Below the pieces are notes generated by a model, which worked only from the letters and a program-made list of their open reading frames with translations, ran no database searches and was not told where the DNA came from. Source: Desulfuromonadaceae bacterium (GTDB taxonomy: Bacteria; Desulfobacterota; Desulfuromonadia; Geobacterales; Pseudopelobacteraceae). From it: a stretch of 64,000 nucleotides of DNA. The stretch is from NCBI GenBank assembly GCA_028688955.1, contig JAQTXD010000004.1:8249-72248 (forward strand), in the 5' to 3' direction. The position numbers were made by a program, and so were the translations under genes. Positions within the stretch are counted from its first letter, which is position 1. Each line of letters opens with the position of its first letter. Positions 2,239-20,168 of this stretch are shown here, one piece after another.

Positions 2239-2384
2239 GTCTCCGTAAAAAAAGTAATGTGACAGAATAAATCGGGCTCACACAGGGCGAACCTCAAATA
2301 TTGTGAGCACGTATTGAACAAGCGCTGATATAAGGTATAGTCACGTCTTACCGTATTCATTTTGCCGGCACAAGGATTCGAGTT

Positions 2385-3500
2385 ATGCGCTCTCAGTCAC
2401 CCCTCTCCAGGATCCTTCTCTTTACCTGTCTCGTGTTGCTCTGTGCCTGCAACAAACAGGAACCGGTACGTCTCGGCTTCATCGGAGGGCTTACCGGCAA
2501 GGTTGCAGATCTCGGCGTGGCCGGTCGCAACGGTGTCCAGCTGGCCATTGAACAGCGTAACGCGGCCGGGGGAATTAATGGACATCCTGTTGAGCTGATC
2601 GTCAGAGATGACGAGCAGAACCCGGATACCGCCAGGCGCGTAGCGGGAGAGCTGATTCGTGAGAATATAGAGCTGATTATCGGCCCGATGACAAGCAGTA
2701 TTGCCATGGCTGTCCTTCCGCAAATCAACGCTTCCAAAAGTATCCTGCTGAGTCCGACCGTGACGACGACGGAGCTCTCCGGTAAGGACGATAATTTTCT
2801 CCGGGTCATCGGCGCGACCACCAGCTACGCCGCCAAGAACGCCCGTTTTCTGTTCGAGAAGCGTGGTGTCCGCACGGTTGCCGTCATTTATGACATCAAC
2901 AACGCATCATATACCGAAAGCTGGCTTACTAATTTTCGCGCTGCATTCACATCCCTCGGTGGAAAAATTGTCCTGATTAAAAAGTATCCGTCGAACAAAG
3001 ACACCGTTTTTCAGCCACTGGTCGTGGATCTGCTGGCCGCAAAAGCTGACTCCGTACTGATAATCAGCAATGCTGTTGATTCCGCCATGATCTGCCAGCA
3101 GATTCACAAGATTGCGCCGGGCCAGCGCATTGCCATGTCGGAATGGGCATCCACGGAGCGTTTTATTGAACTGGCCGGGACGGCGGCTGAAGGAGTCGTG
3201 GTGTCCCAGTTTCTTGACAGGAACGACACATCGCAGCGGTTTCGGGATTTTATCACGGCGTATCGCAGCCGTTTCAACCAGGACCCCGGTTTTGCCGGTG
3301 TTGCCGGTTATGACGCGGCACTGGTTGCGCTTGACGCCATAACCCTGTGCAGTAAAGGTGCGAGTCTCAAGGATACTATCATTACAAAAAAGAGCTTTCC
3401 CGGACTTCAGCAGCCGCAGAACTTTGACCGCTTCGGTGATGCAAGCCGTAAGACCTTTGTCAGTGTCATCAAAGGAAATCAGTACAGTACTGCGGAGTAA
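2385..3500 (+). CDS. Periplasmic ligand-binding lipoprotein, PBP type 1 (LivK/AmiC-like Leu/Ile/Val-binding family)
   Basis: 371 aa. The signal peptide has a lipobox-like LLCAC. The sequence RLGFIGGLTGKVADLGVAGRNGVQLAIEQRNAAGGINGHPVELIVRDD is typical of ABC-type branched-chain amino-acid/amide binding proteins. The stop lies 2 nt before the kinase start. Confidence 0.8.
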   Translation: MRSQSPLSRILLFTCLVLLCACNKQEPVRLGFIGGLTGKVADLGVAGRNGVQLAIEQRNAAGGINGHPVELIVRDDEQNPDTARRVAGELIRENIELIIGPMTSSIAMAVLPQINASKSILLSPTVTTTELSGKDDNFLRVIGATTSYAAKNARFLFEKRGVRTVAVIYDINNASYTESWLTNFRAAFTSLGGKIVLIKKYPSNKDTVFQPLVVDLLAAKADSVLIISNAVDSAMICQQIHKIAPGQRIAMSEWASTERFIELAGTAAEGVVVSQFLDRNDTSQRFRDFITAYRSRFNQDPGFAGVAGYDAALVALDAITLCSKGASLKDTIITKKSFPGLQQPQNFDRFGDASRKTFVSVIKGNQYSTAE

Positions 3501-3502
3501 CA

Positions 3503-6121
3503 ATGTCTATTCAGCCGTTACGCCGAATTCTCGTGTTCCAGTCTGCCGCGGCAATTATTCTGCCGTTTGCGGTAGTGCTTTTTTTCGGTCTTCTCTGGGC
3601 AGTACCCCAGGTCAGAAAAGATGCCGGGACACGCCAGGTTCAACTTGCCAATATTGTCGGCATGCAGGTGGAGAGATACCTTGAAACCGGTGCGGCTATT
3701 GTCAGAGCTGCCGGTGCAATGCCGCGCGGTGATCAGCAGTACCTTACGTCCCTCCTCGATTCGACCGATTCGTTGAGCAGTCTGTACGAAATATCTGCTG
3801 ATGGTACGGTAACCCTGGCCGCACTTCACAAAAATCATCGTGCTCATCTGAACGATCAGATCGGCCTCAATCTCTCTCGCAACCCTCTATTCCTTGACGT
3901 AATGAAGTATAATAAACCGCGCTGGTCAAAAATATTTCTTTCGGTGGTCGGTGGGGGGCTGGTCGCTGCGTACGGCGTCCCGGGGGATGGTGTAACAGTC
4001 ATTGGTGAAATTGACCTGGCACATCTTATTACGTTTCTCAAGCTTATCAGCACAGAAAACGAACTGCTTATTCTTATCGTTGACCATAACGGTCAGGTCA
4101 TTGCCGATAACAGTGGGCGCTTCACGGCGCAACAACTGAACATTGGAAATCACCCGCTGGTTCGTGACGGGATATCGACAGATGCTCCGACTACCGGACG
4201 GTTTGACTTCTCCGGAACAGCCATGACCGGGAGCATGATTCAAATCCAGAGTGTGGACTGGCATGTCATTGTTGCTAAGGCGAATTCATCTCTCTATCGT
4301 ACTCCGCTGTCGGTCACGCTGATTGTGTTGTCCGGAATACTGATCGCTGTCTGCTGCGGTATTTTCGCTTCTGTTTATCTGGCTCGCAAGCTGTCAAGGC
4401 GCTTTAACGACCTTGCACATCTTGCTCAGGATATTGCTCAAGGGGGCAATCCTGACAATTGGCCCACCTCGGCAATTTCAGAATTTAATCAGCTGTCTGA
4501 AAATCTGCAGGTGATGGCAACTGAACTGCGCAGGCAGGACATGATAATGCGGGAGAGCGAGGAGCGCTATCGTACACTGGTTGATAACATCCCGCTTGGA
4601 ATTGCTCTCATTGATTGTGACTATAAAATAATCATGGTGAATACAACTCAGGCGGCACTGTTTGCCCACTCCAGAGAGTGGTTCATTGGTCGTAATTGTT
4701 ATGACACGTTCGAAAAGCGAGATGAAACCTGTCCGCATTGCCCGCGATCACATTCACTTGCTACCGGTAGTGTTGCCCAGACTGAGACGGAAGTAACAAA
4801 GGCAGACGGTCGCACAATTGCGGTTCGGATCAGTTCCGTACCGCTTTTCGGGCCATCCGGGGAGTCAACCGGCTTTATCGAGGTGCTTGAAGATATTACG
4901 GACACAAAGCGCGCCGAAGAAGAAAAACTGACGCTGGAAAAACAGCTCCTCCATGCCCAGAAACTGGAAAGTCTCGGGGTACTGGCAGGAGGCATCGCTC
5001 ACGATTTCAACAATATCCTTACCGCCATCATCGGCAATGCCGACCTGGCTCTGATGCGGCTCAACAGGGAATCTCCGGCAGTTGACAACCTGCATCGTAT
5101 TGAACAGGCGGCATCCCGGGCTGCCGATCTTGCCAGGCAGATGCTCGCATATTCGGGAAAGGGGAAGTTTGTCGTTGAGAACATCAACCTGAATATCCTC
5201 CTCGAAGAGATGCTGCATATGCTGGAAGTTTCGATTTCAAAAAAGGCGGTGCTGCGACTCAACACACATCAGCAACTTCCACTGGTGGAGGCAGATGCCA
5301 CCCAGATGCGCCAGATCATTATGAACCTGGTGATCAATGCCTCGGAAGCGATCGGCGACAAAAGCGGTGTCATTGCCATTACCACCGGCTGCATGGAGTG
5401 CGACCGGAGTTATTTGAAAGATGTCTGGCTTGATGAAAATCTTATCAATGGCCTGTATGTCTACCTTGAAATAGTCGATAACGGTTGCGGTATGAATCGT
5501 GAAACACTGGCAAAGCTGTTCGATCCCTTCTACACAACCAAATTTACCGGCAGAGGTCTGGGAATGGCGGCGGTACTCGGCATCGTGCGGGGGCATAAGG
5601 GAGCGATCAAGGTCTACAGCGAGGTGGGCAAAGGAACCTCTTTCAAAATTCTGCTGCCTGCATCAGGTAAACCGGCGGAGATTTTTAACGGAGCCTCACC
5701 CCCTGATAATTGGCATGGGACCGGTACGGTGCTGCTGGTTGACGATGAGGAAACCATTCGCGCCATCGGAGCCGAAATGCTGAGGGTACTCGGGTTTACG
5801 ACGATAACGGCAGAGGATGGACGAGCGGGACTGAACGCCTATACGGAGAATCCGGGTATTAGTTTTGTTATCCTCGACCTGACCATGCCGCATATGGATG
5901 GTGAACAGTGTTACAGTGAGTTGCGGCGGCTGAATCCTGACGTCAAAGTAATCATATCCAGCGGCTACAACGAGCAGGAGGTTACACAGAAATTTATCGG
6001 TAAGGGACTGGCCGGATTTGTCCAGAAACCGTACAAGCTGAGTGTCCTCAAAGAGGTAATCAGGAATATCTCTCCATCGTGCACGCTCACTACACAGGAG
6101 GATTGCGATGACCGTACATAG
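3503..6121 (+). CDS. Hybrid sensor histidine kinase (TM, periplasmic Cache-like domain, TM, HAMP, PAS, HisKA, HATPase_c, receiver)
   Basis: 872 aa. Two hydrophobic segments flank a sensor region of about 250 aa. PAS segment: YRTLVDNIPLGIALID. H-box: GGIAHDFNNILTAIIGNADLAL. G-box: FTGRGLGMAAVLGIV. C-terminal receiver: VLLVDDEE...ILDLTMPHMDG...KP. Confidence 0.85.
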   Translation: MSIQPLRRILVFQSAAAIILPFAVVLFFGLLWAVPQVRKDAGTRQVQLANIVGMQVERYLETGAAIVRAAGAMPRGDQQYLTSLLDSTDSLSSLYEISADGTVTLAALHKNHRAHLNDQIGLNLSRNPLFLDVMKYNKPRWSKIFLSVVGGGLVAAYGVPGDGVTVIGEIDLAHLITFLKLISTENELLILIVDHNGQVIADNSGRFTAQQLNIGNHPLVRDGISTDAPTTGRFDFSGTAMTGSMIQIQSVDWHVIVAKANSSLYRTPLSVTLIVLSGILIAVCCGIFASVYLARKLSRRFNDLAHLAQDIAQGGNPDNWPTSAISEFNQLSENLQVMATELRRQDMIMRESEERYRTLVDNIPLGIALIDCDYKIIMVNTTQAALFAHSREWFIGRNCYDTFEKRDETCPHCPRSHSLATGSVAQTETEVTKADGRTIAVRISSVPLFGPSGESTGFIEVLEDITDTKRAEEEKLTLEKQLLHAQKLESLGVLAGGIAHDFNNILTAIIGNADLALMRLNRESPAVDNLHRIEQAASRAADLARQMLAYSGKGKFVVENINLNILLEEMLHMLEVSISKKAVLRLNTHQQLPLVEADATQMRQIIMNLVINASEAIGDKSGVIAITTGCMECDRSYLKDVWLDENLINGLYVYLEIVDNGCGMNRETLAKLFDPFYTTKFTGRGLGMAAVLGIVRGHKGAIKVYSEVGKGTSFKILLPASGKPAEIFNGASPPDNWHGTGTVLLVDDEETIRAIGAEMLRVLGFTTITAEDGRAGLNAYTENPGISFVILDLTMPHMDGEQCYSELRRLNPDVKVIISSGYNEQEVTQKFIGKGLAGFVQKPYKLSVLKEVIRNISPSCTLTTQEDCDDRT
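4892..6040. repeat. Copy 1 of a ~1.15-kb paralogous duplication (transmitter plus receiver module of the kinases)
   Basis: Colinear with 9679-10827 at a constant offset of 4787 nt. A hand-counted 60-nt sample (4981-5040 vs 9768-9827) gave 50/60 identical. The protein modules look more than 80 percent identical by eye. Confidence 0.8.
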
Positions 6122-6785
6122 CGCAGATCGTGCTCTGGAAGCCTATCTGAAGGCACTTTTCGATACTGATAAACCAACTGCACTGAGGATTGTCCAGAAC
6201 GCGCTTGACGGTGGGATGACTCCCGAGAAGGTCGTTTTCGACATCATTATCCCGGGCATGGAGCGGATGGTTGGCGGGATGATTTCCGACAATCTGGTTA
6301 CGCTGTCCCAACATTTTCTGGCGGCGCAGATCGCTGAGGAGGTTGTTGACCGGCTGATTCCCCTGTTTGCATCTGTCCCCAAAATTCGCGGCCACGTCGT
6401 CATCGGCACCAGTCACGGCGATTTTCACGGACTTGGCAAGAAGATCGTCATCGGCTGCCTGCGGGCCAGTATGTTTGAAATTACCGATCTGGGAATTAAT
6501 GTCAACCCGGAGCGTTTTGTTGATGAGGCGGTTGCCGCTGGCGCAGAGGTTATCGCCATATCCTCCATGATGGTTCACACCGCTACCGGGGAGTTCGGAG
6601 CGAAGCAGGTGCGCCGGATTCTTAAGAGCCGCGGGCTGGAGGGGAGGCTACGCATCATTGTCGGCGGTGCACCATACCGTTTTCATGACAACCTGTTTCG
6701 TGAGGTCGGGGCTGATGCCTGGGCTGACAGTGCAGCGGAGGCGCCTGCCGTTGTGGCACGTCTGGTGCGAGAGGTGCGATCATGA
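6108..6785 (+). CDS. Corrinoid (cobalamin)-binding protein, MtaC/MtbC-like methyltransferase cognate corrinoid protein
   Basis: 225 aa with an N-terminal helical cap plus a Rossmann B12-binding domain. DxHxxG is present as GDFHGLG, and the downstream GG motif as IVGGAP. AGGAGGA RBS at 6096-6102. Overlaps the kinase stop by 14 nt. Confidence 0.8.
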   Translation: MTVHSADRALEAYLKALFDTDKPTALRIVQNALDGGMTPEKVVFDIIIPGMERMVGGMISDNLVTLSQHFLAAQIAEEVVDRLIPLFASVPKIRGHVVIGTSHGDFHGLGKKIVIGCLRASMFEITDLGINVNPERFVDEAVAAGAEVIAISSMMVHTATGEFGAKQVRRILKSRGLEGRLRIIVGGAPYRFHDNLFREVGADAWADSAAEAPAVVARLVREVRS

Positions 6786-7813
6786 GCATCGGTATGGAGC
6801 GTTTCGGGGCACTGATGAGCGGTCAGATACCGGACCGGGTACCGATAATCTGCAACCTGCTCGATCAAGGCGCACAGGAATTAGGAATTTCGCTGCGTGA
6901 GTATTATTCCCGGGGTGACTTTGTTGCTGAGGGGCAGCTGCGCATGCGTGAAAAATACGGGTATGATACCCTGTTGGGGATGTTCTACTCAGCCCTGGAG
7001 GCGGAGATACTCGGCTGCAAGAGCATAGTCTATGCTGCTGATGGGCCTCCCAATGTCGGCCACCTGGTTATCCGCACGCCGGAAGATATCAAAAAGCTGC
7101 AACTGCCGGAGGAGTTGAATGAACATCCGCGTTTCCGTGAACTTGCAGCCTGTATCGGGATCATGAAGCGGGAATCGGCCGGGCGTTGGCCGGTGCTTGG
7201 TGTCGTGACGGCGTCGTTCTCATTGCCGGCCATGCTGATGGGTATCGGCCAATGGCTGGATCTTTTTCTGAGTGGCGACCCGCGGTTGCGTGACCAGCTT
7301 CTGGAACTCTGCTCTCATTTTTGTTCCCGCCAGATCGCCGCACTGCGCGAGGCGGGTGCCGATCTCATTGTCTATGTGAATCCGGTGGCATCGGCGACCT
7401 TCATTCCGCCGCACAAATCCCGGGAGCTGGCGCTTCCCTGGGTGATTAAGGACCTGGAGCAGCAGGGTCCTGCCGGCGTGGTGTTCTTCAACGGCGGAGG
7501 CCGGATTAATCCGATCCTGGCCGACCTGCAGACGGATACCGGAATCGGTGCCTATTATCTTAATCCGTTTGATGATATCATCGAAGCACGGCGCATTCTG
7601 GGGCCCCAGGCGCTGATTGCCGGAGCAATCAACGATATCAGGCTCATAGACTGGACTCCGGACGAAATCGATCAGGAAGTGGAGCGGATCATGGGGGCCG
7701 GAAAGCAGGGGGGCGGCTTTCTTTTCGGTACGTTGTTGATGCCATACCGGATTCCCGAAGACAACATAAGGGCGCTGGTGGACGCGGCCATCAAACATGG
7801 CAGCTATGCATAG
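6782..7813 (+). CDS. Uroporphyrinogen-decarboxylase (URO-D) family protein, MtaA/CmuA-like methyltransferase
   Basis: 343 aa. The N-terminus ERFGALMSGQIPDRVPIICNLL resembles MtaA/MtbA-type proteins. ATGA overlap with the corrinoid gene. I could not see the HxC...C zinc site expected for thiol-methylating MtaA enzymes (see findings). Confidence 0.7.
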   Translation: MSIGMERFGALMSGQIPDRVPIICNLLDQGAQELGISLREYYSRGDFVAEGQLRMREKYGYDTLLGMFYSALEAEILGCKSIVYAADGPPNVGHLVIRTPEDIKKLQLPEELNEHPRFRELAACIGIMKRESAGRWPVLGVVTASFSLPAMLMGIGQWLDLFLSGDPRLRDQLLELCSHFCSRQIAALREAGADLIVYVNPVASATFIPPHKSRELALPWVIKDLEQQGPAGVVFFNGGGRINPILADLQTDTGIGAYYLNPFDDIIEARRILGPQALIAGAINDIRLIDWTPDEIDQEVERIMGAGKQGGGFLFGTLLMPYRIPEDNIRALVDAAIKHGSYA

Positions 7814-7822
7814 GGATGGCGT

Positions 7823-8410
7823 ATGAGTGAGGTGGAACGATTAATCGGCTGCGGTATTCTTGGCAAGGAGATTCGTTATCTGGCCGAAAAAAACGGCTGG
7901 AATCTGGCGATGACGTTTCTCCCCTCCGGCCTGCACGTAGACTTTGGAAAACTTCGCATTTCTCTGGAAAAAACGTTACAATTTCATGCCGGTGAGGCTG
8001 CCGTTGTATTTTACGGTGCCTGTCATCCCTGCATGGAGCATATTCTGGATGCTGCCCATGTTATCCGCACCGCGGGCCAGAATTGCGTTGATATCTACCT
8101 GGGACACGAGATGTTCTGTCGCGAGCTGGAGCAGGGCGCGTTTTTTTTGTTTGAAGATTGGGCGCTGCACTGGGACACTATTGTCGGTGCTGTTATCCCG
8201 GGCAGCCCGGAAATAATGCGGAGCATTTTCCGCGGTGCCCATACCTATATACTGGCGATTCGCACCCCCTGCTCGGCTGATTTCAGTGCTGAGGCGGAGG
8301 CCGTGAGCGCCATGACGACACTTGACCTGCGCTGGGTAGACGTAGGGCTTGAACATCTCGAAGCAAATCTTGTGGAGACGCTTTTCCGCGCTAAGGCAGG
8401 AGCACAATGA
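7823..8410 (+). CDS. DUF1638-like protein (family usually found beside corrinoid methyltransferase genes)
   Basis: 195 aa. Recognised from memory of the family (about 200 aa, conserved Cys/His-containing segments such as FYGACHPCMEHIL) and from its classical position after a corrinoid/URO-D pair. Needs HMM confirmation. Confidence 0.55.
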   Translation: MSEVERLIGCGILGKEIRYLAEKNGWNLAMTFLPSGLHVDFGKLRISLEKTLQFHAGEAAVVFYGACHPCMEHILDAAHVIRTAGQNCVDIYLGHEMFCRELEQGAFFLFEDWALHWDTIVGAVIPGSPEIMRSIFRGAHTYILAIRTPCSADFSAEAEAVSAMTTLDLRWVDVGLEHLEANLVETLFRAKAGAQ

Positions 8411-10869
8411 TACCTGACGGACAACTCACCCATGAAAAAATTGCTGAACTCGAACAGCGCATTTCTGAATTGGCGCAAAGCAAGGCGCGGCTTGAACTGC
8501 TTAACCGTCTGCTGACCAGTCTCAGTGAAGTTGCCGGACTTGATAACATGGTGCAGCATATTCTCAACGTCCTGATGCAGACCATTGGTGCGGCCAATAT
8601 ATCGATAATTTTCCGGGTGGGCGACAATTGGCGGTACCGGGATGTCTTCGGGGCGAGCGGACTGTTTCAGGAATCCGACAACCCGGATGTCGTCACCGCG
8701 CTGGCCGACGGCAAACCGGTGCGGATCAGCCAGGGCGTACTGCAGGACGTATCCGCCGGTGAAGCCGATTTGATACAGGTAGAGGAGTGGATATATCCGC
8801 TGGTGTCTCAGGAACGAAAAATTGGTGCCATCTGCATGGACGGTATGCAGTTCTCCGATACCGGTATCTTCAAGGAACTCATCCCCTTTTTCGTGTATGC
8901 CGGTCTGATGCTGGACAACGAAATTTCAAATTATTCCCTTCTGTCGGAAGCGCACCAGCGTCTGCAGGATTCGGAAACCCTCTACCGGACCCTGTTTGAC
9001 GAGTCGCCGGCAGGAGTAGTGCTCTGGAGCGTTCCCGATCTCAGGCCGCTGCAGTTCAATACTGCAGCCCATGCACAGCTTGACTATACCCGGGAAGAGT
9101 TTGCCGGCCTGACCGTCTCGGATTTTGAAGCGGCCAAGAGTGCAGCTGATATGGAAGATACCTCTGTAATCCTGCGGCGGGACGGGATTGTCAATTTTGA
9201 GACGATACATCGAACCAAGGGGGGTGATATCCGCTCGATGGCTATTACCCTGCGGATGATCGAATTGAGTGGAGAGCCGTGTGTCATCGCACTGCACCGG
9301 GATATTACGGAAATGAACCGGACACGGGCCTCTTTGGAGGAGAATCGCCGGTTTCTGGCCGATATTATCGAATACAGCGGCATGCTGATAGCGGTTAAGG
9401 ATCGGGAGGGGCACTATGAGATAGTCAACCGGAAATGGGAGGAAGTTACCGGACTGTCTCGCAGTGAAGCCATTGGCAAAACTGATGAAGAGCTGTTTCC
9501 CGGATCGAGTGGCAAACTGTTCCGGGCAAACGATCTGGAAGTTATTGAGGGGGATTGCTGCATCGAGAGGGAGGAATACTTTGATGATGCCGTGAAAGGC
9601 CGCCAGTATGGAATTTCGACAAAGTTTCCCCTGAAAGCCGCAGACGGCACGATCAGTGGGCTCTGTCTCATGAGTACGGATATTACAGACCGGAAGCGTT
9701 CGGAGGAAGAGCGGCTGAATCTTGAAAAACAGCTCCTCCATTCACAGAAACTTAAAAGCCTGGGCGTGTTGGCCGGCGGCATTGCCCATGACTTCAACAA
9801 CATCCTCACCGCCATCATCGGCAATGCCGATCTGGCCCTGATGCGCATCAACAAGGAATCACCGGCGGTGGACAACCTGCATCGCATTGAACATGCCGCC
9901 GCCCGTGCGGCCGACCTCGCCAAACAGATGCTTGCCTATTCCGGAAAGGGCAAGTTCGTGGTCGAGAATATAAACCTGAACGTCCTGCTGGAAGATATGC
10001 TGCACATGCTGGAAGTCTCCATTTCAAAAAAAGCGGTGCTGCGGCTCAACCCCCATCAGCAACTCCCGGTGGTAGAGGCAGATGCGACCCAGATCCGCCA
10101 GATCGTCATGAATCTGGTGATCAACGCTTCGGAAGCGATTGGTGACAAAAGCGGCGTTATTGCCATTACAACCGGATGTATCGACTGTAACCGGAATTAT
10201 CTGGAAGATGTCTGGCTGGATGAGAATCTGAACGATGGTCTGTATGTGTATCTGGAAATTGCTGATACCGGATGCGGCATGGATAAGGAGACTCTGTCCA
10301 AGCTGTTTGATCCTTTTTTTACGACGAAATTTACCGGTAGAGGTCTTGGTATGGCTGCTGTACTCGGTATCGTACGAGGGCACAAGGGTGCTATCAAGGT
10401 TTACAGCGAGCAGAATAAAGGCACCACCTTCAAGATTCTGCTTCCTTCATCTGGCAAACCGCCCGAAGTTTTCAACGGTACCTCTCCCGGCAACGCATGG
10501 CACGGCAACGGGGTTGTACTGCTGGTCGATGACGAAGAAACCATTCGTGGCCTCGGCATTCAGATGTTGAAAGAGATCGGCTTTAGCGCCATCACCGCCG
10601 ATGACGGCAGAGAGGCGCTGGAGATTTTCAAATCCAGGGATGACATTGCTTTTGTTATCCTTGATCTTACCATGCCGCATATGGATGGCGAGCAATGTTT
10701 CCGTGAGTTACGGCAGCTGAATCCGGACGTCAAGGTAATCATGTCCAGCGGTTTTAACGAGCAGGAAGTGACGCAGAAGTTCATCGGCAAGGGGTTGGCC
10801 GGCTTCCTGCAGAAACCGTATAAGCTGTCGACACTCCAGTCTACGATTCAAAAAGTATTAAAACAGTAA
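8407..10869 (+). CDS. Cytoplasmic hybrid sensor histidine kinase (coiled coil, GAF, PAS, PAS, HisKA, HATPase_c, receiver)
   Basis: 820 aa with no TM segment. GAF-like N-terminal region, then two PAS-like segments (YRTLFDESPAGVVLW; FLADIIEYSGMLIAVKD). The H-box, ATPase and receiver are near-identical to those of the 3503-6121 kinase. ATGA overlap with the DUF1638 gene. Confidence 0.85.
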   Translation: MIPDGQLTHEKIAELEQRISELAQSKARLELLNRLLTSLSEVAGLDNMVQHILNVLMQTIGAANISIIFRVGDNWRYRDVFGASGLFQESDNPDVVTALADGKPVRISQGVLQDVSAGEADLIQVEEWIYPLVSQERKIGAICMDGMQFSDTGIFKELIPFFVYAGLMLDNEISNYSLLSEAHQRLQDSETLYRTLFDESPAGVVLWSVPDLRPLQFNTAAHAQLDYTREEFAGLTVSDFEAAKSAADMEDTSVILRRDGIVNFETIHRTKGGDIRSMAITLRMIELSGEPCVIALHRDITEMNRTRASLEENRRFLADIIEYSGMLIAVKDREGHYEIVNRKWEEVTGLSRSEAIGKTDEELFPGSSGKLFRANDLEVIEGDCCIEREEYFDDAVKGRQYGISTKFPLKAADGTISGLCLMSTDITDRKRSEEERLNLEKQLLHSQKLKSLGVLAGGIAHDFNNILTAIIGNADLALMRINKESPAVDNLHRIEHAAARAADLAKQMLAYSGKGKFVVENINLNVLLEDMLHMLEVSISKKAVLRLNPHQQLPVVEADATQIRQIVMNLVINASEAIGDKSGVIAITTGCIDCNRNYLEDVWLDENLNDGLYVYLEIADTGCGMDKETLSKLFDPFFTTKFTGRGLGMAAVLGIVRGHKGAIKVYSEQNKGTTFKILLPSSGKPPEVFNGTSPGNAWHGNGVVLLVDDEETIRGLGIQMLKEIGFSAITADDGREALEIFKSRDDIAFVILDLTMPHMDGEQCFRELRQLNPDVKVIMSSGFNEQEVTQKFIGKGLAGFLQKPYKLSTLQSTIQKVLKQ
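9679..10827. repeat. Copy 2 of the ~1.15-kb paralogous duplication (transmitter plus receiver module)
   Basis: See 4892-6040. Same length and no indels detected by eye along the protein alignment. Confidence 0.8.
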
Positions 10870-10937
10870 CGACTATTTCAAACGTTTGTCCCACGTGGCA
10901 CGGCTCATGCTATCTCCCGGTACAGGGGGATACATTT

Positions 10938-11504
10938 ATGAGTAGATCAATACTGATTTGTGATGACGAACCGCTCATCAGAACGAACCTGAAGAGTATG
11001 TTGGTTGATCTCGGTTTTGATGAGATCCTGGAATGCGGAGACGGCGCAAAAGCCGTTGAGCTGGCGTTGGCAAGCTTTCCCGATATTGCGATTCTTGATG
11101 TTTCCATGCCCGGAATGGATGGCATAAGCGCTGCGATCGAGATCAGAAAAAAACTGAAAATCCCCATCATGCTGCTGACCAGCGCCTGTGACGGCGCGAC
11201 TGTAAAACGGGCATCTGCAAGCGGGATTGCCGCTTATTTAACCAAACCCCTCCGCCAGCAGGACCTGTTGCCTGCCATAGAGATAGCCCTGCAGCACACA
11301 GAAGCGATTGAAGAGTTGAAAGAAAAAATCGATGATCTGCACGAGCTGATTGAGAATCGTAAGGTCATTGAAAAAGCCAAGGGTTTGATAATGGAAAAGA
11401 ACCACTTGTCTGAGGCGGAGGCGTATCGCGCCATGCAGAAAACGGCAATGGACAAGCGGAAAACTCTGCTGCAGGTTGCAGGGGGCATTTTGAAGGAAGG
11501 GTAG
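10938..11504 (+). CDS. ANTAR-domain response regulator (receiver plus RNA-binding antiterminator output; AmiR/NasT/GnfR type)
   Basis: 188 aa. Receiver: ILICDDEP...ILDVSMPGMDG...TKP. A coiled linker is followed by an ANTAR helix bundle: RKVIEKAKGLIMEKNHLSEAEAYRAMQKTAMDKRKTL. Confidence 0.85.
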   Translation: MSRSILICDDEPLIRTNLKSMLVDLGFDEILECGDGAKAVELALASFPDIAILDVSMPGMDGISAAIEIRKKLKIPIMLLTSACDGATVKRASASGIAAYLTKPLRQQDLLPAIEIALQHTEAIEELKEKIDDLHELIENRKVIEKAKGLIMEKNHLSEAEAYRAMQKTAMDKRKTLLQVAGGILKEG

Positions 11505-11570: not shown

Positions 11571-12491
11571 TTAAAATCTTCTCCCCGCCGGGCTCTCCGC
11601 AATCAGACGTTCTGCCACGATCTCAATTTCAGCAATCACTTTTGCATCCATTTTCTTTATCCAGCGTTTCGGTATTCCCTCCATGCCGTAATAGGCACCT
11701 GCCAGCATCCCGCAGATGGCACCGGTCGTATCGGCATCGGCACCTTGATTGACGGTTCCAACCAGGCACTCTTCAAAGCTCTTCCCCCGGAAAAACCAGT
11801 GAAACACCGTCTGCATGGTATCAACTACATAACCGGTCGCAAGGCCGCGGTACGGTTCAAAGTTGAACGTTGGAAATCTGAGCAGCAGTCCGTCAACATG
11901 GCGGCGCAGACGGCTTTTTTCCGCTCCGCAGAGCGCCATGTGCAGAAGTTGCCCCAGGCAGAGGCAGGCGGCATCGGATACCGGGTTGTTATGGGTGATG
12001 TGGGCCTGCTCGATGACATACTGTTTGAGCAGCTCACCATCAGGGAGAGAAAAGAGGACTGCGGGAAGGAGGCGCATGGCAGCGCCGTTGCCGGCATCCC
12101 ACTCGTTTTGCGGTGCTTCCAGTCGTCCGTGGAGAAGATAGGCGCGGATGCCCTTGCGGCAGGTATCGCCGCAGTCAACCGGACGTGACTTGAGCCAGGC
12201 GGCAAAGTTGTCAGCGACCGCCGTCAGTGACCATCCCTGACTTTTAATAATAGCCCGGGCGATACAAAGCGCCATTTCGGTATCATCAGTGACCTGTCCC
12301 GGCTTTAAACGCAGCCAGCCACCGCCGATAATGTCACGGAATGTGCCGTATTTTGAAGCAATCTCAGAGGCGGTCATGAATTCGACCGTGGCACCCAGAG
12401 CATCACCGATCGCCATACCGATAAAGGCGGCCCGTGCACGGTCGTGAATTTCTTCAAGGTTGTACTGGATAAACATGGGTACCCCATACAT
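11571..12491 (-). CDS. draG: ADP-ribosyl-(dinitrogen reductase) glycohydrolase DraG
   Basis: 306 aa. Long blocks match my recollection of Rhodospirillum rubrum DraG: GDALGATVEFMT, GGGWLRLKPGQVTDDTEM, WLKSRPVDCGDTCR, DAGNGAAMR, ITHNNPVSDAAC, YVVDTMQTV, NQGADADTTGAICGMLAGAYYG. An alternative start lies at 12476. Confidence 0.8.
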   Translation of the reverse strand: MYGVPMFIQYNLEEIHDRARAAFIGMAIGDALGATVEFMTASEIASKYGTFRDIIGGGWLRLKPGQVTDDTEMALCIARAIIKSQGWSLTAVADNFAAWLKSRPVDCGDTCRKGIRAYLLHGRLEAPQNEWDAGNGAAMRLLPAVLFSLPDGELLKQYVIEQAHITHNNPVSDAACLCLGQLLHMALCGAEKSRLRRHVDGLLLRFPTFNFEPYRGLATGYVVDTMQTVFHWFFRGKSFEECLVGTVNQGADADTTGAICGMLAGAYYGMEGIPKRWIKKMDAKVIAEIEIVAERLIAESPAGRRF

Positions 12492-12702: not shown

Positions 12703-12718
12703 TGGCACACTCTATGCT
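12703..12718 (+). promoter_or_regulatory. Sigma-54 (-24/-12) promoter of the nifB operon
   Basis: TGGCAC-ACTCT-ATGCT against consensus TGGCAC-N5-TTGCW. The GG/GC spacing is correct, and the element lies 79 nt upstream of the nifB ATG. Confidence 0.7.
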
Positions 12719-12735
12719 CTATCAACTTCAGCAAT

Positions 12736-12747
12736 GGCAACGACGCC
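12736..12747 (+). promoter_or_regulatory. Candidate ANTAR-target stem-loop (3-bp stem, hexaloop AACGAC) overlapping the 5' arm of the leader terminator
   Basis: GGC-AACGAC-GCC has A at loop position 1 and G at position 4, as in described ANTAR substrates. Its 3' half (12743-12747) is also part of the terminator stem. A convincing second hexaloop hairpin was not found. Confidence 0.3.
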
Positions 12748-12780
12748 CGCGGGATTTTTCCTGTGGGCGTTTTTTATTTT
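12743..12780 (+). terminator. Intrinsic terminator inside the nifB 5' leader (attenuator)
   Basis: ACGCCCGCGGG (12743-12753) pairs with CCTGTGGGCGT (12760-12770): 11 bp including 2 G-U pairs. The loop is ATTTTT and TTTTTATTTT follows. The element lies between the sigma-54 promoter and the nifB start codon at 12797. Confidence 0.7.
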
Positions 12781-12796: not shown

Positions 12797-13666
12797 ATGG
12801 CAACTGCATGTGAAATGAAGGACAAAATCCAGGGACATCCCTGCTTCGGCGGTAACCATCACAAAAACGGCCGTATGCATCTGGCCGTGGCGCCCAAGTG
12901 CAATATCAAATGCGGCTATTGCTCACGCAAGCACGACTGCGCCAACGAATCACGCCCCGGCGTTACCAGCCGTATTCTTACTCCTCAGGAAGCGATTGAA
13001 AAAGTGCGGGAAGTCATGGCCAGCCCGATCGCCGGTCCGATTATCAAGGTTGTCGGTATCGCCGGTCCCGGAGATCCGCTTGCCAACGAAGAGACCTTTG
13101 AGACCTTTGAGATGGTTAAAAAAGAATTTCCCCACCTGATGCTCTGCCTCAGCACCAATGGGCTGCTGCTGCCGGAATCAATAGACCGTCTGTATGAAAT
13201 GGGGTTGCACAGTCTGACTGTTACCATTAACGCAGTCGACCCGGAAATCGGTGCCCAGATTTACCGCCATGTTATCTATCACGGTACGCATTACACTGGT
13301 GTTGAAGGGGCAGAAATACTTATCGCCAACCAGTTTGCGGGGCTCAAGCGGGCGGGTGGACTTGGTCTCACCATAAAGGTTAATTCGGTCCTCATACCGG
13401 GAGTCAACGACGATCAGCTGCCGTTGATAGCCAAACGGGTCAAGGAGTTGGGGGCTTTCGTCATGAATATCATGCCGATTATTCCCCAGGCTGAACTGGC
13501 ACACATTGTACCACCAACCGAGGAGCGTGTCGCGGCACTCCGTTCAGCGAACGAGAACATTATCGGTCAATTTGCCCATTGCAAGCAGTGCCGTGCCGAT
13601 GCGATCGGCCTAATCGGTCAGGACCTCAACGTAACAATAGCCGAGGCGGCTTGTCCGACGCCATGA
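12797..13666 (+). CDS. nifB: Nitrogenase FeMo-cofactor biosynthesis radical SAM protein NifB (short form, radical SAM domain only)
   Basis: 289 aa. HPCFGGNHHKNGRMHLAVAPKCNIKCGYCSRKHDCANESRPGV is the NifB signature, including the CxxxCxxC cluster. There is no NifX-like C-terminal extension. Confidence 0.9.
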   Translation: MATACEMKDKIQGHPCFGGNHHKNGRMHLAVAPKCNIKCGYCSRKHDCANESRPGVTSRILTPQEAIEKVREVMASPIAGPIIKVVGIAGPGDPLANEETFETFEMVKKEFPHLMLCLSTNGLLLPESIDRLYEMGLHSLTVTINAVDPEIGAQIYRHVIYHGTHYTGVEGAEILIANQFAGLKRAGGLGLTIKVNSVLIPGVNDDQLPLIAKRVKELGAFVMNIMPIIPQAELAHIVPPTEERVAALRSANENIIGQFAHCKQCRADAIGLIGQDLNVTIAEAACPTP

Positions 13667-14484
13667 CAATTGAACCGTTCTGCACAGAGGAGATACCGGC
13701 ATTCCTGGCTTTGGCGGAAGCTGAACAGTGGGTGGCAGAATCATGGGAATTTGAATTTCTTCTCTCTGCGTTCCCCCAGGGGTGCTTTACCGCACGTGGG
13801 AGTGATGGAGAAGCGGTTGGATTTGTAACCTCTCTGCATCATCGGCTGAGCGGATGGATCGGCAATCTGATCGTTGCGGGGGAACAGCGGGGGAAGAGGA
13901 TCGGGCAACGGCTGTTTGGTGCCGCTCTTGAGGCACTTCGCGGGGCCGGTGCTGAAACGTACTGGCTGACCGCCTCTAAATCAGGTCAACCGCTCTATGA
14001 AAAGTATGGATTTACCCGTACTGATACCATCATCCGCTGGATCGGTAAAGGACGCCAGAAGCATGGTGGGCTCAATGATTTCGGATCAGGCACTCTGAAT
14101 GCCCCGGCCATCGATCTCGACCGCCTCTCCTGGGGCGATCAGCGAGACATGCTGCTGGCAGCGACAGTGGGGCGGGGGAACGTATTACAGGATGAATCAG
14201 GTTTTATTTCACTGCAGCCGTGTGGCGATTCGGTACAGATCGGGCCGTTTGCCGCAGGCAGCGTGAAATGTGCGGAGCATCTTTTTGAGGACGCCATCAG
14301 AACCGTTGCATTGGGCACAAAGATTGTACTGGATGCGCCCGTTTCAAACCGGGCGGCGCTCCGAATTTTCAACCATGGGAAAATGAGGATAGCAGGAAGT
14401 ACCGAACTGATGTATGCGGGCAGGAAACCTGACTATCGACCGGAGTTGGTTTACGGGCTGGCAACGATGGGGAGCTGCGGGTAG
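13663..14484 (+). CDS. GNAT-family N-acetyltransferase (GNAT domain plus C-terminal extension)
   Basis: Start chosen at ATG 13663, which forms an ATGA overlap with the nifB stop. The track ORF from 13579 would overlap nifB by 88 nt. The acetyl-CoA motif region is IVAGEQRGKRIGQRLF (Q/RxxGxG/A type). Confidence 0.7.
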   Translation: MTIEPFCTEEIPAFLALAEAEQWVAESWEFEFLLSAFPQGCFTARGSDGEAVGFVTSLHHRLSGWIGNLIVAGEQRGKRIGQRLFGAALEALRGAGAETYWLTASKSGQPLYEKYGFTRTDTIIRWIGKGRQKHGGLNDFGSGTLNAPAIDLDRLSWGDQRDMLLAATVGRGNVLQDESGFISLQPCGDSVQIGPFAAGSVKCAEHLFEDAIRTVALGTKIVLDAPVSNRAALRIFNHGKMRIAGSTELMYAGRKPDYRPELVYGLATMGSCG

Positions 14485-16698: not shown

Positions 16699-18144
16699 AT
16701 GTCCAACGCCGGTCTTCAGGGGAACAAACCCCGCACCCCCTATCACGAGTTTTACGCTGATGATTTCACGCCTCGTGACCACTACCGGCTGTTGTGGGAT
16801 AATATCAGGGCCACCGGTAACAGTGCCCTTGAGGCAAAAGCCCACGAGTCGCAGCTGGCGCTGCAGGCTGAGGGTGTAACCTTCACGGTATATGGGGAGA
16901 GTGAGGAAGGGATCGAACGCATCTGGCCCTTCGACCTGATCCCGCGCATCATTACCGCCCAGGAGTGGGTCAAGATCGAACTGGGTCTTAAACAGCGGGT
17001 GCGGGCTCTGAACCACTTCCTCGGGGATCTCTACGGCGAACAGCGCATAATCAAGGACGGGGTCATACCCCCGGAGCTTATCTATCAGGGGCGGGACTTC
17101 CGTCGTGAGATCGTCGGCATCGTGCCGCAGCGGGGGATCTATACCCATGTCAGCGGTATTGATATTATCCGTGATGAAAAAGGTGAGTTCCTGATTCTTG
17201 AAGATAATCTGCGTACACCATCCGGTGTCTCCTATATGATCGAGAACCGGGTCATAGAGCGGCGGATCATGCCGGAATTTTTCAATAAATACCGCGTACG
17301 CCGTGTTGAACACTACCCGTCCCTGCTGCTCGCCGCCCTGCGCGGGCTCTCACCGCGCGGTAAGGACAACGCCGAGATCGTGCTGCTGACCCCCGGTATC
17401 TACAACTCGGCCTATTTCGAGCACACCTTCCTTGCCAAGGAAATGGGTATTGAACTGGCCGAGGGGCGTGACATGGTCGTGGTCAACGATATTGTCTACC
17501 TGAAAACCACTACCGGTCTGCAACGGGTGGACGTGATCTACCGCCGTATCGACGATGATTTTCTTGATCCACTGGTGTTCCGCTCTGACTCCTCCCTGGG
17601 CATCGCCGGGGTAATTAATGCCTGGAGGGCGGGGAACGTTGCGATTGTCAATGCACCCGGCAGCGGCATTGCCGATGATAAGGCGGTGTACCCGTACGTG
17701 CCGGACATTATCCGCTACTACCTCGGCCAGGAACCGATCCTCAATAATGTGCATACCTACCAGATGACCAACAAGTCAGATCGTGAGTATGTTTTCGACA
17801 ACATGGAGCGGATGGTGATCAAGGCGGTCAGCGAATCCGGTGGCTACGGCATGCTCATGGGACCTTCATCGACCCCCGCTTCGCGGAAAGAGTTCATGGA
17901 TCTGGTGCTGGAGAATCCGCGCAACTATATCGCCCAGCAGGTTGTCTATCTCTCCCGTCACGTCTGCTATATGGATGGTGAGCTGGAAGCCAGGCATCTG
18001 GATCTGCGTCCGTACGTGATTTATGGCGACGATATTGAGGTCGTTCCTGGTGGGCTGACCAGGGTGGCACTTCGCAAGGGTTCGCTGGTTGTTAACTCAT
18101 CTCAGGGTGGCGGCAGCAAAGATACGTGGGTATTGGCTGAGTAA
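16699..18144 (+). CDS. Circularly permuted ATP-grasp type 2 protein (COG2308-type amidoligase)
   Basis: 481 aa. Its N-terminus, length and position upstream of alpha-E and transglutaminase genes match the conserved COG2308-COG2307-COG1305 triad. Confidence 0.8.
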   Translation: MSNAGLQGNKPRTPYHEFYADDFTPRDHYRLLWDNIRATGNSALEAKAHESQLALQAEGVTFTVYGESEEGIERIWPFDLIPRIITAQEWVKIELGLKQRVRALNHFLGDLYGEQRIIKDGVIPPELIYQGRDFRREIVGIVPQRGIYTHVSGIDIIRDEKGEFLILEDNLRTPSGVSYMIENRVIERRIMPEFFNKYRVRRVEHYPSLLLAALRGLSPRGKDNAEIVLLTPGIYNSAYFEHTFLAKEMGIELAEGRDMVVVNDIVYLKTTTGLQRVDVIYRRIDDDFLDPLVFRSDSSLGIAGVINAWRAGNVAIVNAPGSGIADDKAVYPYVPDIIRYYLGQEPILNNVHTYQMTNKSDREYVFDNMERMVIKAVSESGGYGMLMGPSSTPASRKEFMDLVLENPRNYIAQQVVYLSRHVCYMDGELEARHLDLRPYVIYGDDIEVVPGGLTRVALRKGSLVVNSSQGGGSKDTWVLAE

Positions 18145-18158
18145 GGAGGAGGAATATC

Positions 18159-19094
18159 ATGTTAAGTCGTATAGCCGATTCTATGTATTGGATGGCCCGT
18201 TATCTGGAGCGGGCCGGGGAAACCGCCCGTCTGATGGAGATCAACCTGCTCTATCTGGTTGAGGCGGAAGAGGATATGGGCGAAGAGGACAAATGGCGGC
18301 CGATCCTGCAGATAAACTCATCGGAGCCGCTCTATGACGAACAGTTCGGCGGCGGCATCAGTACGCCGCGCGTGTTGCAGTTTATCAGTGCCGGACGTTC
18401 AAATCCCAGCTCCATCCGCACCTGCCTGCGTCTTTTCCGGGAGAATGCCCGGGTTGCGCGCGATCGCATTTCCAAAGAGATGTGGGAGGCGGTCAATGAA
18501 ATCTGGATGAACTTTGACGAACGGCTGAAGGGATCATTGACTCCTGAACGGGCCGGAGCCATTTTTGTTGAGTTACGCAACCAGGTGGCGCGCTTTAACG
18601 GATTGGTTGCCTCCACCATGATGCGTGGCGAGGCGTATGCGTTCTACCAGCTGGGGGGATGTCTCGAACGTGCCGACATGACCGCCCGTACACTTGATAT
18701 CAAGTATCATATTATTCTGCCTGATCTCTCCATGGTTGGATCTGCGCTAGACTATTACCAGTGGGCTGCCCTGCTCAAATCATTGTCCGGATTCGAAGCG
18801 TTCCGGCGCAATTACCATTCTGCCTTCATGCCGGCAGACGTCGCCGAATTTGTTGTTCTTAACCGTGAATTCCCCCGGTCGATCGTTTTTTCCGTGAAGC
18901 ATATGGGCGGGGCCCTGCAGGCGATTGGCCTGGAGAACAAGGCGGCGACCGAGGCGGCGTTTCAGAGTCTGAGTGAATCGGTAGAGGTGACCGTGAAGCA
19001 GATATTCGATAACGGTCTGCACGAATACCTGGATGAATTGCTGCGACGACTGTCACTGCTCCACGGTGCTCTGGCGGAAGAATTTTTTCAATAG
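18159..19094 (+). CDS. Alpha-E domain protein (COG2307)
   Basis: 311 aa. The N-terminus MLSRIADSMYWMARYLERAGETARL is the characteristic alpha-E family start. Confidence 0.8.
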   Translation: MLSRIADSMYWMARYLERAGETARLMEINLLYLVEAEEDMGEEDKWRPILQINSSEPLYDEQFGGGISTPRVLQFISAGRSNPSSIRTCLRLFRENARVARDRISKEMWEAVNEIWMNFDERLKGSLTPERAGAIFVELRNQVARFNGLVASTMMRGEAYAFYQLGGCLERADMTARTLDIKYHIILPDLSMVGSALDYYQWAALLKSLSGFEAFRRNYHSAFMPADVAEFVVLNREFPRSIVFSVKHMGGALQAIGLENKAATEAAFQSLSESVEVTVKQIFDNGLHEYLDELLRRLSLLHGALAEEFFQ

Positions 19095-19191
19095 GGGGGA
19101 CACCGCGCGTGCCCTCGATGCAACATCCCGGTGTCGGTAACTCCGGGGCGGTGTGCTGCTGTTGCCGTACCTGAAACCAGAGGAGAAGTAC

Positions 19192-20070
19192 ATGCGGTAT
19201 CTTATAGAACACGAAACGATCCTTGAGTATCCTCAGATGGTCCGTGAACATCATGTTGAGCTGCGTCTGGCACCACGCGCGGACGGGCATCAAAAGGTTC
19301 TTTCCTGCGCCATGGAAACGGAACCGGACGCAGAAATGGCGTCCTATTTCGATTATTTTGGTAATCGGGTGGATTATTTCTGCGTGATCCAGCCACACAC
19401 CCGTCTCGTGACGCGTTTGAAGAGCGAAGTGGAAACCCTGCAGCAGAACCCGTTCAATTTTGAGGCGATAGCAGCAGTCGACGAACAGGAATGGTTGCAA
19501 AAAACAATTCGGCGCACCCCTCCGATGAACGATTATGTTCTTCATCGCAGTCTGTTGACACCGTCAGCTATGAAGCTGGCCGAAGCGGTCGCGTGTGCTT
19601 TCCCAAGACGTGATAGCGAGCAACCGGTGCTGGATTCGCTTATGGCGTTGCTGGAGTGGGTACCATCGGTGCTGGAGTATCGATCCGGCAGTACTGAGGT
19701 CCACGGCTCATTAACCGCTGCTGTGCGTCAGGGGGGCGGAGTCTGCCAGGATTTTGCCCATCTTTTCATCACTGTGGCACGCTCATGGGGAGTTCCCGCT
19801 CGCTATGTCATGGGGTATCTTGATCCCGGCATCAGTCAGGTTGGTGAACCGCTGGCAACCCACGCCTGGGCAGAGGTTCTGGTACCGGGTGCCGGATGGA
19901 TCGGCTTTGACGCAACCCATAACCTGTTGGCGAATGATCACTATGTAGCGGTTGCGGTCGGTCGGGACTCCTACGATGCTGCACCCCAACGTGGCAGCTT
20001 TAAAGGGGAGCCATCAGGTGAACTGCCGACAGTAACAGTAACGATGCAGGGACAGGGCCAGGAACAGTAG
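19192..20070 (+). CDS. Transglutaminase-like cysteine peptidase family protein (Bact_transglu_N plus transglutaminase core)
   Basis: Start chosen at ATG 19192 behind a GAGGAG RBS (MRYLIEHET...). The catalytic Cys context is GGGVCQDFAHLF, with His/Asp in HAWAEVLVPGAGWIGFDATHN. Confidence 0.85.
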   Translation: MRYLIEHETILEYPQMVREHHVELRLAPRADGHQKVLSCAMETEPDAEMASYFDYFGNRVDYFCVIQPHTRLVTRLKSEVETLQQNPFNFEAIAAVDEQEWLQKTIRRTPPMNDYVLHRSLLTPSAMKLAEAVACAFPRRDSEQPVLDSLMALLEWVPSVLEYRSGSTEVHGSLTAAVRQGGGVCQDFAHLFITVARSWGVPARYVMGYLDPGISQVGEPLATHAWAEVLVPGAGWIGFDATHNLLANDHYVAVAVGRDSYDAAPQRGSFKGEPSGELPTVTVTMQGQGQEQ

Positions 20071-20168
20071 GACGGATTCCTGACAGTACTTTTTTCTCCA
20101 CGTTTCCTGCTTCACCGTGGTATTTTCTGCCCAATATGAACTAACCTGAAATCCTGAAAGAGACAACG

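Follow-up and report, generated by a model that had tools for sequence, protein, structure and literature searches.

A conserved four-gene module that joins a corrinoid protein, a zinc-less URO-D-fold protein and DUF1638 to a GAF-headed signalling protein, and its possible role in sensing

The locus described here is a run of seven genes in a window of 64,000 nt (the whole stretch of DNA that was analysed), part of a contig from a Desulfuromonadaceae metagenome-assembled genome (MAG); all coordinates are those of the window. The seven open reading frames, all on the forward strand, encode in order a type-1 periplasmic binding protein (PBP), a membrane hybrid histidine kinase (HK1), a corrinoid protein, a URO-D-fold protein, a DUF1638 protein, a cytoplasmic hybrid histidine kinase (HK2), and a response regulator with receiver (REC) and ANTAR domains (Table 1). 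They are joined by a 2-nt gap, a 14-nt overlap, a 4-nt ATGA overlap, a 9-nt gap, a second 4-nt ATGA overlap, and a 68-nt gap. Frames and junctions agree exactly with an earlier description made from the letters alone (hereafter the sequence-only reading), and its domain assignments were borne out for all seven proteins by Pfam and NCBIfam profile searches. That reading took the seven genes for one operon. The order of the frames stands; the operon as a unit is not supported, because the 68-nt gap holds an exact match to a sigma-54 promoter, conserved in the one related genome with this arrangement. As judged from gene order in other genomes, the conserved functional unit is four genes, encoding the corrinoid protein, the URO-D protein, the DUF1638 protein and a signalling protein headed by a GAF-fold domain (here HK2), and not seven.

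The forward survey of this module combined the neighbourhoods of URO-D homologues, of which a homologue search found 350, with a scan of 185,579 species genomes for the clade's own motifs. Fetched loci were compared with the window proteins by tblastn and were counted as informative when they extended past DUF1638. The order corrinoid protein, URO-D, DUF1638, and a protein bearing the N-terminal GAF-fold domain of HK2 (the N-domain) was found in 25 of 25 informative genome loci. These span the Geobacterales, Desulfobacterales and Spirochaetes, with URO-D identity declining from 85% to 48%, and include Citrifermentans bremense R1, Geobacter argillaceus, Pelobacter, Geopsychrobacteraceae, Desulfospira joergensenii, Desulfobacula, and two Spirochaetes lineages, with Oceanispirochaeta among the hosts. 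So constant an order at the centre of the locus, seen in each related locus that was informative, is not a product of chance. The four genes have only unrelated neighbours in Geobacter sp. AOG2 and Pelobacter seleniigenes, both of them isolates, and four metagenome loci (L003-L006) likewise hold the same four genes with nothing related around them. The sequence-only reading had proposed a survey of the longer order kinase, corrinoid protein, URO-D, DUF1638, kinase, ANTAR; the inner four genes were recovered throughout, whereas the flanks were not. A PBP and a Cache sensor accompany the module only in this MAG and in L023, both being absent from the other informative loci, and the ANTAR/draG/nifB flank is found only in this MAG and in L001 (re-fetched as L010). 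On this distribution, the PBP and HK1 are lineage-specific neighbours that lie outside the conserved module.

The linkage was also examined in the reverse direction, starting from the N-domain. An index-free search of 1.84 billion representative proteins returned 383 representative carriers, 258 of them at E <= 1e-10; a word-indexed search gave only 2 matches. Six distant carriers, with 27-33% identity to the query, were chosen for their long contigs: a diguanylate cyclase of Acetobacterium (L039), a kinase of Hydrogenedentes (L040), a multi-GAF/PAS protein of 1874 aa (L041), and the carriers at L042, L043 and L044. A further protein, P0257, was left out, its 3.9-kb contig beginning at the gene. 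Genes for a B12-binding protein and a URO-D protein lay directly upstream in all six, and five of these loci had DUF1638 as well. The junctions in L039 and L041-L043 ranged from a 13-nt overlap to an 8-nt gap. The module in Hydrogenedentes (L040, 4203-8622) is without DUF1638, and its GAF-headed kinase follows 59 nt after the URO-D gene. No methyltransferase II (MT II), MtaB/MttB/MtgB homologue, other substrate-specific methyltransferase or transporter was found in any locus with called genes. Taken together, these loci place the module in anaerobes of several phyla, at least four of them named. The sequence-only reading had proposed the corrinoid trio as an input to the second kinase; the tie between trio and kinase held in both directions and proved broader than claimed, and it was the wider seven-gene context that found no support.

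Table 1. Genes and other features of the locus, in window coordinates.
Feature	Position	Strand	Remarks
Sigma-70-like promoter candidate, weak	2314..2341	+	TTGAAC-16-TATAGT; 9/12 consensus match; no commoner than in shuffles
Type-1 periplasmic binding protein, probably a lipoprotein	2385..3500	+	Peripla_BP_6, 1e-53
HK1, membrane hybrid histidine kinase	3503..6121	+	dCache_1-HAMP-PAS-HisKA-HATPase_c-REC
Corrinoid protein, module gene 1	6108..6785	+	B12-binding_2 cap and Rossmann B12-binding domain
URO-D-fold, MtaA/CmuA-like putative corrinoid methyltransferase, module gene 2	6782..7813	+	URO-D; without zinc ligands
DUF1638 protein, module gene 3	7823..8410	+	DUF1638, Pfam 3.4e-25
HK2, cytoplasmic hybrid histidine kinase, module gene 4	8407..10869	+	GAF-like (weak GAF_2), PAS, PAS, HisKA, HATPase_c, REC
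GAF-fold input domain of HK2, aa 1-185	8407..8961	+	long helix, GAF core, long exit helix
Sigma-54 (-24/-12) promoter match	10896..10911	+	TGGCACGGCTCATGCT; within the 68-nt gap that precedes the ANTAR gene
REC-ANTAR response regulator, GnfR-like	10938..11504	+	Pfam REC and ANTAR; PF00072 84.4 bits
draG (ADP-ribosylglycohydrolase)	11571..12491	-	1.1e-64
nifB leader	12703..12771	+	sigma-54 promoter 12703-12718; GnfR-like box GGCAACGACGCC 12736-12747; intrinsic terminator 12742-12771
nifB-like radical SAM gene	12797..13666	+	90% identical counterpart in L001

The N-domain that heads HK2 belongs to a divergent GAF subfamily, with GAF_2 scores of 21.3-24.7 bits against a Pfam cut-off of 28.6. Its AlphaFold2 (AF2) model has a predicted local distance difference test (pLDDT) score of 90.6, and Foldseek matched it to the GAF domains of PDE5A, Nlh1, PtsP, NifA and phytochrome with probability 1.0 and template modelling (TM) scores of 0.5-0.7. 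Among its carriers, proteins of 222-1874 aa, the domain sits nearly always at the extreme N-terminus (residues ~8-187) and is followed by zero to two PAS domains, HisKA or HisKA_2/HWE, and a receiver that may be present or absent. The outputs recorded among 84 carriers were 54 HATPase_c, 21 receiver, 5 HWE-type kinases, 3 GGDEF and 1 SpoIIE. A part that stays constant while the output part varies has, on this comparison, the character of an input domain. In HK2 itself, H461 and D753 are invariant in a four-sequence alignment and are read here as the phospho-accepting residues. A 1192-aa carrier (P0250) combines the N-domain with a PocR sensory domain, which has been reported too in the MecA kinase of the mec cassette. 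One candidate role, in which the GAF domain would be a methyl acceptor by analogy with Ada and thiol methylation, was set aside: no conserved Cys or His was found in the N-domain alignments, and the URO-D protein is without the zinc site.

Three representatives (P0350, P0383 and P0386) carry DUF1638 fused in frame to the GAF domain, in the architectures DUF1638-GAF-SpoIIE-HATPase_c_2, DUF1638-GAF, and DUF1638-GAF-HisKA-HATPase, and the second of these was found in situ 3' of corrinoid and URO-D genes (L044). The fusion in that locus (7001-8290, 429 aa) overlaps the next gene, a HisKA-HATPase, by 62 nt, and may be a split or frameshifted DUF1638-GAF-kinase. The DUF1638 protein of the window scored 89.2 bits against PF07796 (cut-off 27), covering profile positions 1-159 of 161, and residues C10, C67-H68-P69 and Q86-N87-C88 are invariant across phyla. 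Its AF2 model (pLDDT 86.6) is an alpha/beta fold with no significant match in a PDB fold search (best TM 0.39, E 2.4e-3), so the fold gives no function. A role is suggested by genetics in the split MetH system of Phaeobacter inhibens, where DUF1638 mutants are methionine auxotrophs, as are mutants of the RamA-like activase (PMC5764234; also PMC12478193); the gene there adjoins one for a B12-binding protein, whose function depends on it by genetic evidence (PMC5764234). A 2025 study places DUF1638 with the reductive recharging of cobalamin. No RACo or RamA homologue was found in the window, nor in any locus save L043, where a gene for RACo, a reductive activator of corrinoid proteins (2346-3620, Raco_middle and RACo_C_ter), lies directly upstream of the module corrinoid gene (1 of 44 loci). 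This adjacency, with the genetic link of DUF1638 to corrinoid reactivation (PMC5764234), speaks against the statement in the sequence-only reading that no activase is present.

The corrinoid protein scored above the Pfam cut-offs for both of its domains (PF02607, 35.3 bits; PF02310, 69.4 bits). The DxHxxG motif is intact as GDFHGLG, as the sequence-only reading had noted, and its D, H and G are invariant across 30 homologues. Among NCBIfam models it fell under every cut-off (TIGR02370, 101.9 bits against 215.3), with the MtgC, MtbC and MtaC models all far under. Its nearest solved relatives in a PDB search were 1Y80 (7e-22), followed by MttC (7XCN), 4JGI and MtmC (3EZX), and it is predicted to be of the methyltransferase type, with B12 bound His-on. 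In L003 the corrinoid protein (9015-10004) has a called length of 329 aa, against ~225 aa as a rule, the excess of about 100 aa lying at the N-terminus. B12-binding domains are also established or predicted light sensors in operons with kinases, GGDEF, SpoIIE and ANTAR proteins (CarH, photoglobin/photocobilin; PMC8717448, PMC11796333), and a relationship of the corrinoid protein to photocobilins (8J2W, 8J2X and 8J2Y) is detectable at 2e-13, much more distant than that to the methyltransferase type; CarH was absent from the PDB matches at E <= 0.01. The published light-responsive signature, GxxW / EH / GxxH / GxxxP (PMC11796333), is not retained: in a register set by hand and anchored on H69, with no computed CarH alignment, the W position is M58, EH is Q68-H69, and only GxxH is kept.

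The URO-D protein matched PF01208 over its full length (162.6 bits, 1.7e-47) and is the most conserved gene product of the module, with 48-54% identity between the MAG and the Desulfobacterales and Spirochaetes loci. It scored 93.6 bits against TIGR01463 (cut-off 235.4) and 61-67 bits against the MtaA and MtbA equivalog models, whose cut-offs are 400-600. By profile alignment its best PDB relative is MtaA 4AY7 (1.6e-16). In that alignment a clade-invariant FNGGG (F/Y-F-N-G-G-G) falls on the H-I-C-G of MtaA and a Thr (G-T-L) faces the third Cys, so the H-x-C...C ligands that make up the zinc site of the thiol-methylating members are missing. The sequence-only reading had likewise failed to find an MtaA-type zinc site. 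The same reading held that no substrate methyltransferase is present, and this is not supported. URO-D-fold enzymes include zinc-free substrate:corrinoid methyltransferases (MT I enzymes) such as CdmB (PMC13222342), and by that analogy the URO-D protein could itself be the MT I. Substrate-dependent methylation may therefore take place even without an MtaB/MttB-type enzyme.

What is observed comprises the linkage in both directions, the domains, the conserved cofactor motif, a URO-D protein that has lost its zinc site, the fused proteins, and outputs that vary; each biochemical step that follows, and the nature of the signal, we infer from these. The sensing element would be the corrinoid protein with its His-on B12. 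The zinc-less URO-D methyltransferase would set the state of the cobalt by moving a methyl group between a small molecule and the metal, the likeliest direction being the loading of Co(I) to CH3-Co(III), as carried out by MT I enzymes. DUF1638 would help to return oxidised Co(II) to the active state together with a RACo-type activase, encoded beside the module in one locus and presumably elsewhere in other genomes, and would probably serve also as a physical adaptor to the signalling protein. The GAF N-domain would read the state of this complex, and its long exit helix would switch the output, which in this MAG would be a hybrid kinase passing phosphate from His461 to Asp753 and on to an Hpt protein and a regulator. 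That the four genes at 6108-10869 form a dedicated sensory module is quite probable. The narrower claim, that the GAF domain reads the corrinoid state and feeds the kinase, we favour slightly, and we are less confident again of any one signal in particular. For the full reading we would put the probability at roughly one half: a new principle of signal input across phyla, in which an enzyme-set methylation or redox state of cobalt, read by a GAF domain, drives kinases, c-di-GMP cyclases and PP2C phosphatases, so that B12 methyl-transfer chemistry is used for sensing and not for metabolism or light detection.

Several points weigh against that reading. Contact between the cassette and the GAF domain has the gene fusions as its sole support, and a GAF domain without conserved Cys or His could be by itself the binding site of a small molecule. 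The reset step is not accounted for by one methyltransferase that has no enzyme on the acceptor side. DUF1638 cannot be the sole adaptor, given the Hydrogenedentes locus that is without it. Most of the forward loci come from one order, the Geobacterales, and the reverse test comprised six loci selected for long contigs.

The trio might instead be a metabolic half-system with its MT II and activase elsewhere, the kinase sensing a substrate through its GAF and PAS domains and controlling expression of the cassette, as an ordinary regulator beside its target. Regulators commonly adjoin the operons they control, GAF domains are mostly small-molecule binders, and in the mec cassette catabolic methyltransferases are interspersed with a kinase, a receiver, and corrinoid and URO-D proteins (PMC9768040). 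The explanation is weakened by three observations: no DNA-binding response regulator is conserved with the module; the GGDEF, SpoIIE and hybrid-kinase outputs act on no promoter directly; and DUF1638-GAF fusions occur in three representatives. Nor does it sit well with the want of an MT II, transporter or substrate-specific enzyme in the loci with called genes, or with an N-domain found only behind the cassette in the six informative reverse cases. We regard it as unlikely.

A redox or oxygen sensor, in which the signal is the oxidation of the highly reducing Co(I) or the loss of CH3-Co(III) and the URO-D and DUF1638 proteins (with or without RACo) do no more than reset the cofactor, as in MetH reactivation, would fit several of the same facts. 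The named hosts are, so far as known, all strict anaerobes, the three invariant Cys and the His of DUF1638 are a possible metal or redox site, the RACo gene is adjacent in L043, and a cue of global kind would go well with outputs as broad as hybrid kinases and c-di-GMP. Such a sensor needs no substrate-specific methyltransferase, yet URO-D is the best conserved gene of the module, and the methyl donor of its reset step would still have to be accounted for. It too seems improbable to us, if not negligible.

The model put forward in the sequence-only reading, in which the ANTAR protein receives phosphate from both the PBP/Cache kinase and the corrinoid-linked kinase, so that a periplasmic ligand and the corrinoid state together govern nif antitermination, turns on the flanks of the module. 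By eye, the PBP carries a signal peptide and perhaps a lipobox (...LLCAC), and it is related to Liv/urea binding proteins, far under their NCBIfam cut-offs. HK1 and HK2 are 78% identical over 413 aa of transmitter and REC, with unrelated sensor regions, and would probably share a partner. However, L008, L011, L012, L016 and L017, relatives without the ANTAR gene, hold further neighbouring hybrid kinases whose cores are 73-85% identical to that of HK2. The near-identical cores therefore point to a paralogous family of the kind in which many sensors serve one pathway, and not to an ANTAR-specific link; they suggest a kinase family that has expanded while exchanging its sensors, and whose members may all serve a single Hpt or regulator. 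Both kinases are hybrid, with a C-terminal REC, and neither has an Hpt domain by Pfam, which gives no ground for assuming that phosphate passes directly to the ANTAR receiver. The gene order is common to one other Desulfuromonadaceae MAG, though its upstream part differs, and the association is missing from all other informative loci.

On the nif side, the ANTAR gene is followed directly by draG, the nifB-like gene and nifV, in keeping with the nif neighbourhood noted in the sequence-only reading, with a GNAT gene between the last two and a nifEN fusion at 52527-55286. TGGCAC-N6-TGCW has just two exact matches in the window, which precede the ANTAR gene and nifB respectively; both are conserved in L001, where the counterpart of the first is TGGCACGCCTCATGCT. 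In Geobacter sulfurreducens, gnfR and nifH have RpoN-type promoters, that of gnfR shown by primer extension (PMC2995071), and by the same token the conserved match in the 68-nt gap gives the ANTAR gene its own promoter. The GnfR box is CAGGCAANGGCGCC; GnfR needs a kinase, and GnfK is a small one without a sensor domain, encoded elsewhere (PMC2995071). The box of the nifB leader differs from this one at three positions and keeps its core GGCAANGNCGCC before a strong terminator (-27.5 kcal/mol, z = -5.05), a candidate ANTAR-type target that favours the convergence of the kinases, and the leader in L001 has its sigma-54 promoter, box and terminator likewise. At up to two mismatches, CAGGCAANGGCGCC matched only outside the leaders, near the level of chance. 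The leader of nifEN (55287-55420, reverse strand) parallels that of nifB, with TGGCATGGCACGTGCT as a sigma-54-like site and ACGGCAATGACGCT as a GnfR-like box, after which come a weak hairpin and a T-run.

The likeness to GnfK/GnfR that had been drawn from an ANTAR gene placed beside nif genes is borne out by the REC-ANTAR architecture, the RpoN-type promoter and the adjoining genes. Convergence of the two kinases is not, given the restriction of the ANTAR flank to two genomes, the hybrid kinases without Hpt and the separate sigma-54 promoter, and we hold it to be quite improbable. A suggested resemblance to AmiC/AmiR is likewise unsupported. In that system a cytoplasmic PBP sequesters an ANTAR protein with a non-phosphorylated pseudo-receiver; here the PBP appears to be exported and is followed by a Cache kinase, and the ANTAR protein has a normal receiver acidic pocket with acceptor D54, both judged by eye. 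The ANTAR gene is best read, from its neighbours and its separate promoter, as that of a GnfR-like regulator of nif which in this lineage happens to adjoin the module; by analogy with GnfR, the nif leaders, that of nifB among them, are the most likely targets of its product, and the link of the module to a nif regulator is probably local and incidental. Upstream, the candidate promoter at 2314..2341 would start a six-gene transcript in the MAG. An Rfam scan of the window gave zero matches, and hence no cobalamin riboswitch.

The weakest of the alternatives is a B12 photoreceptor, in which light would break the Co-C bond of methyl-cobalamin, the GAF protein would read the change, and URO-D and DUF1638 would rebuild the cofactor in the dark: the relationships and the lost signature given above, the absence of any photoglobin or bilin domain, and hosts that are, so far as known, anaerobes of sediment and subsurface leave it only a slim chance.

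Some other features of the window are recorded here. The GNAT frame (13579-14484), listed with a TTG start, shares its first 88 nt with the end of the nifB-like gene; its true start is probably downstream, because the L001 counterpart is called shorter (274 aa). A conserved cluster at 16699-22777, between the nif genes and an RND efflux operon, comprises a trio of circularly permuted ATP-grasp, Alpha-E and transglutaminase genes, then two AstE/AspA-like genes and a class-I glutamine amidotransferase. Divergent from nifEN, a PBP_like_2 gene overlaps a GGDEF-EAL gene (55620-58648, ATGA-type), another pairing of a binding protein with a signalling protein. A glutamate dehydrogenase frame (62897-63811, reverse strand) begins inside its N-terminal Pfam domain (profile positions 88-128), so the listed ATG probably lies downstream of the real start; the gdhA gene of G. 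sulfurreducens is repressed by GnfM.

If the preferred reading, a corrinoid state set by enzymes and read by the GAF domain, is true, it would add a new class of sensory input to bacterial signalling and give DUF1638 its first signalling role, alongside its genetic link to corrinoid reactivation. It would also define a new GAF subfamily of ~380 representative clusters, and point to a cue that enters the phosphorelay and c-di-GMP networks of Geobacter, Pelobacter, Desulfobacterales, Spirochaetes, Acetobacterium and others. The idea can be tested directly, since Geobacter sp. AOG2, Pelobacter seleniigenes, Citrifermentans bremense R1, Geobacter argillaceus and Desulfospira joergensenii are cultured carriers. 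The corrinoid/URO-D pair that lies between kinase and receiver in the mec dichloromethane cassette merits re-examination in the same light.

In full-text searches of the literature directed at the module no account of it came to light, one further search leading only to papers on B12 photoreceptors and photoglobins, and none of the distinct works listed under the term DUF1638 concerns signalling; the statement in the sequence-only reading that no such cassette was known in a system of this kind is upheld to that extent. The nearest known systems resemble the module in part. Corrinoid methyltransferase systems (MtaABC, MtmBC/MtbA, the O-demethylases, and CdmBCA with RamA/RACo) share with it a DxHxxG corrinoid protein beside a URO-D methyltransferase, and the DUF1638 gene and, in one locus, RACo in the module point to the same reactivation of Co(II) to Co(I). 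The module differs from them in having a single methyltransferase, with no MT II, MtaB/MttB/MtgB or transporter, in the translational coupling of its genes to a signalling protein rather than to catabolic genes, and in NCBIfam scores under the cut-offs. CarH/LitR, AerR/PpaA and photoglobin/photocobilin resemble it in using a B12-binding protein as a sensor, with kinases, GGDEF, SpoIIE or ANTAR proteins as outputs. Those are light sensors, however, in which the B12 domain is fused to or binds its effector and no methyltransferase is needed, whereas the module is without the CarH light signature and conserves two enzyme-like partners and a dedicated GAF domain.

The GnfK/GnfR system of G. sulfurreducens (PMC2995071) is like the present locus in its REC-ANTAR protein beside nif genes, its sigma-54 promoter, and its nif leaders with a sigma-54 promoter, a GGCAA-N-G-N-CGCC box (here a candidate) and a terminator. 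This likeness covers 10938-11504 and the nif leaders only, not the corrinoid module; HK1 and HK2 are large hybrid sensor kinases, in contrast to the small sensor-less GnfK (GSU0941), and the regulator is likened to GSU2822 by description. In the split methionine synthase of Phaeobacter inhibens with its RamA-like protein (PMC5764234), DUF1638 again stands beside a B12-binding protein; that system differs in serving methionine synthesis, with pterin- and homocysteine-binding subunits and no signalling protein. The mec cassette MecA-MecB-MecC-MecD (PMC9768040) also places corrinoid and URO-D-family genes between a sensor kinase and a receiver, and is set apart, by description, by its PocR-domain kinase, its further methyltransferases MecE, MecF and MecI with a transporter, and its catabolic induction. 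The module differs from every one of these nearest known systems in a defining respect. We place it as a variant among known kinds, namely cofactor-based accessory sensors and B12-based sensing, with a substantial chance that it represents a new sensing principle.

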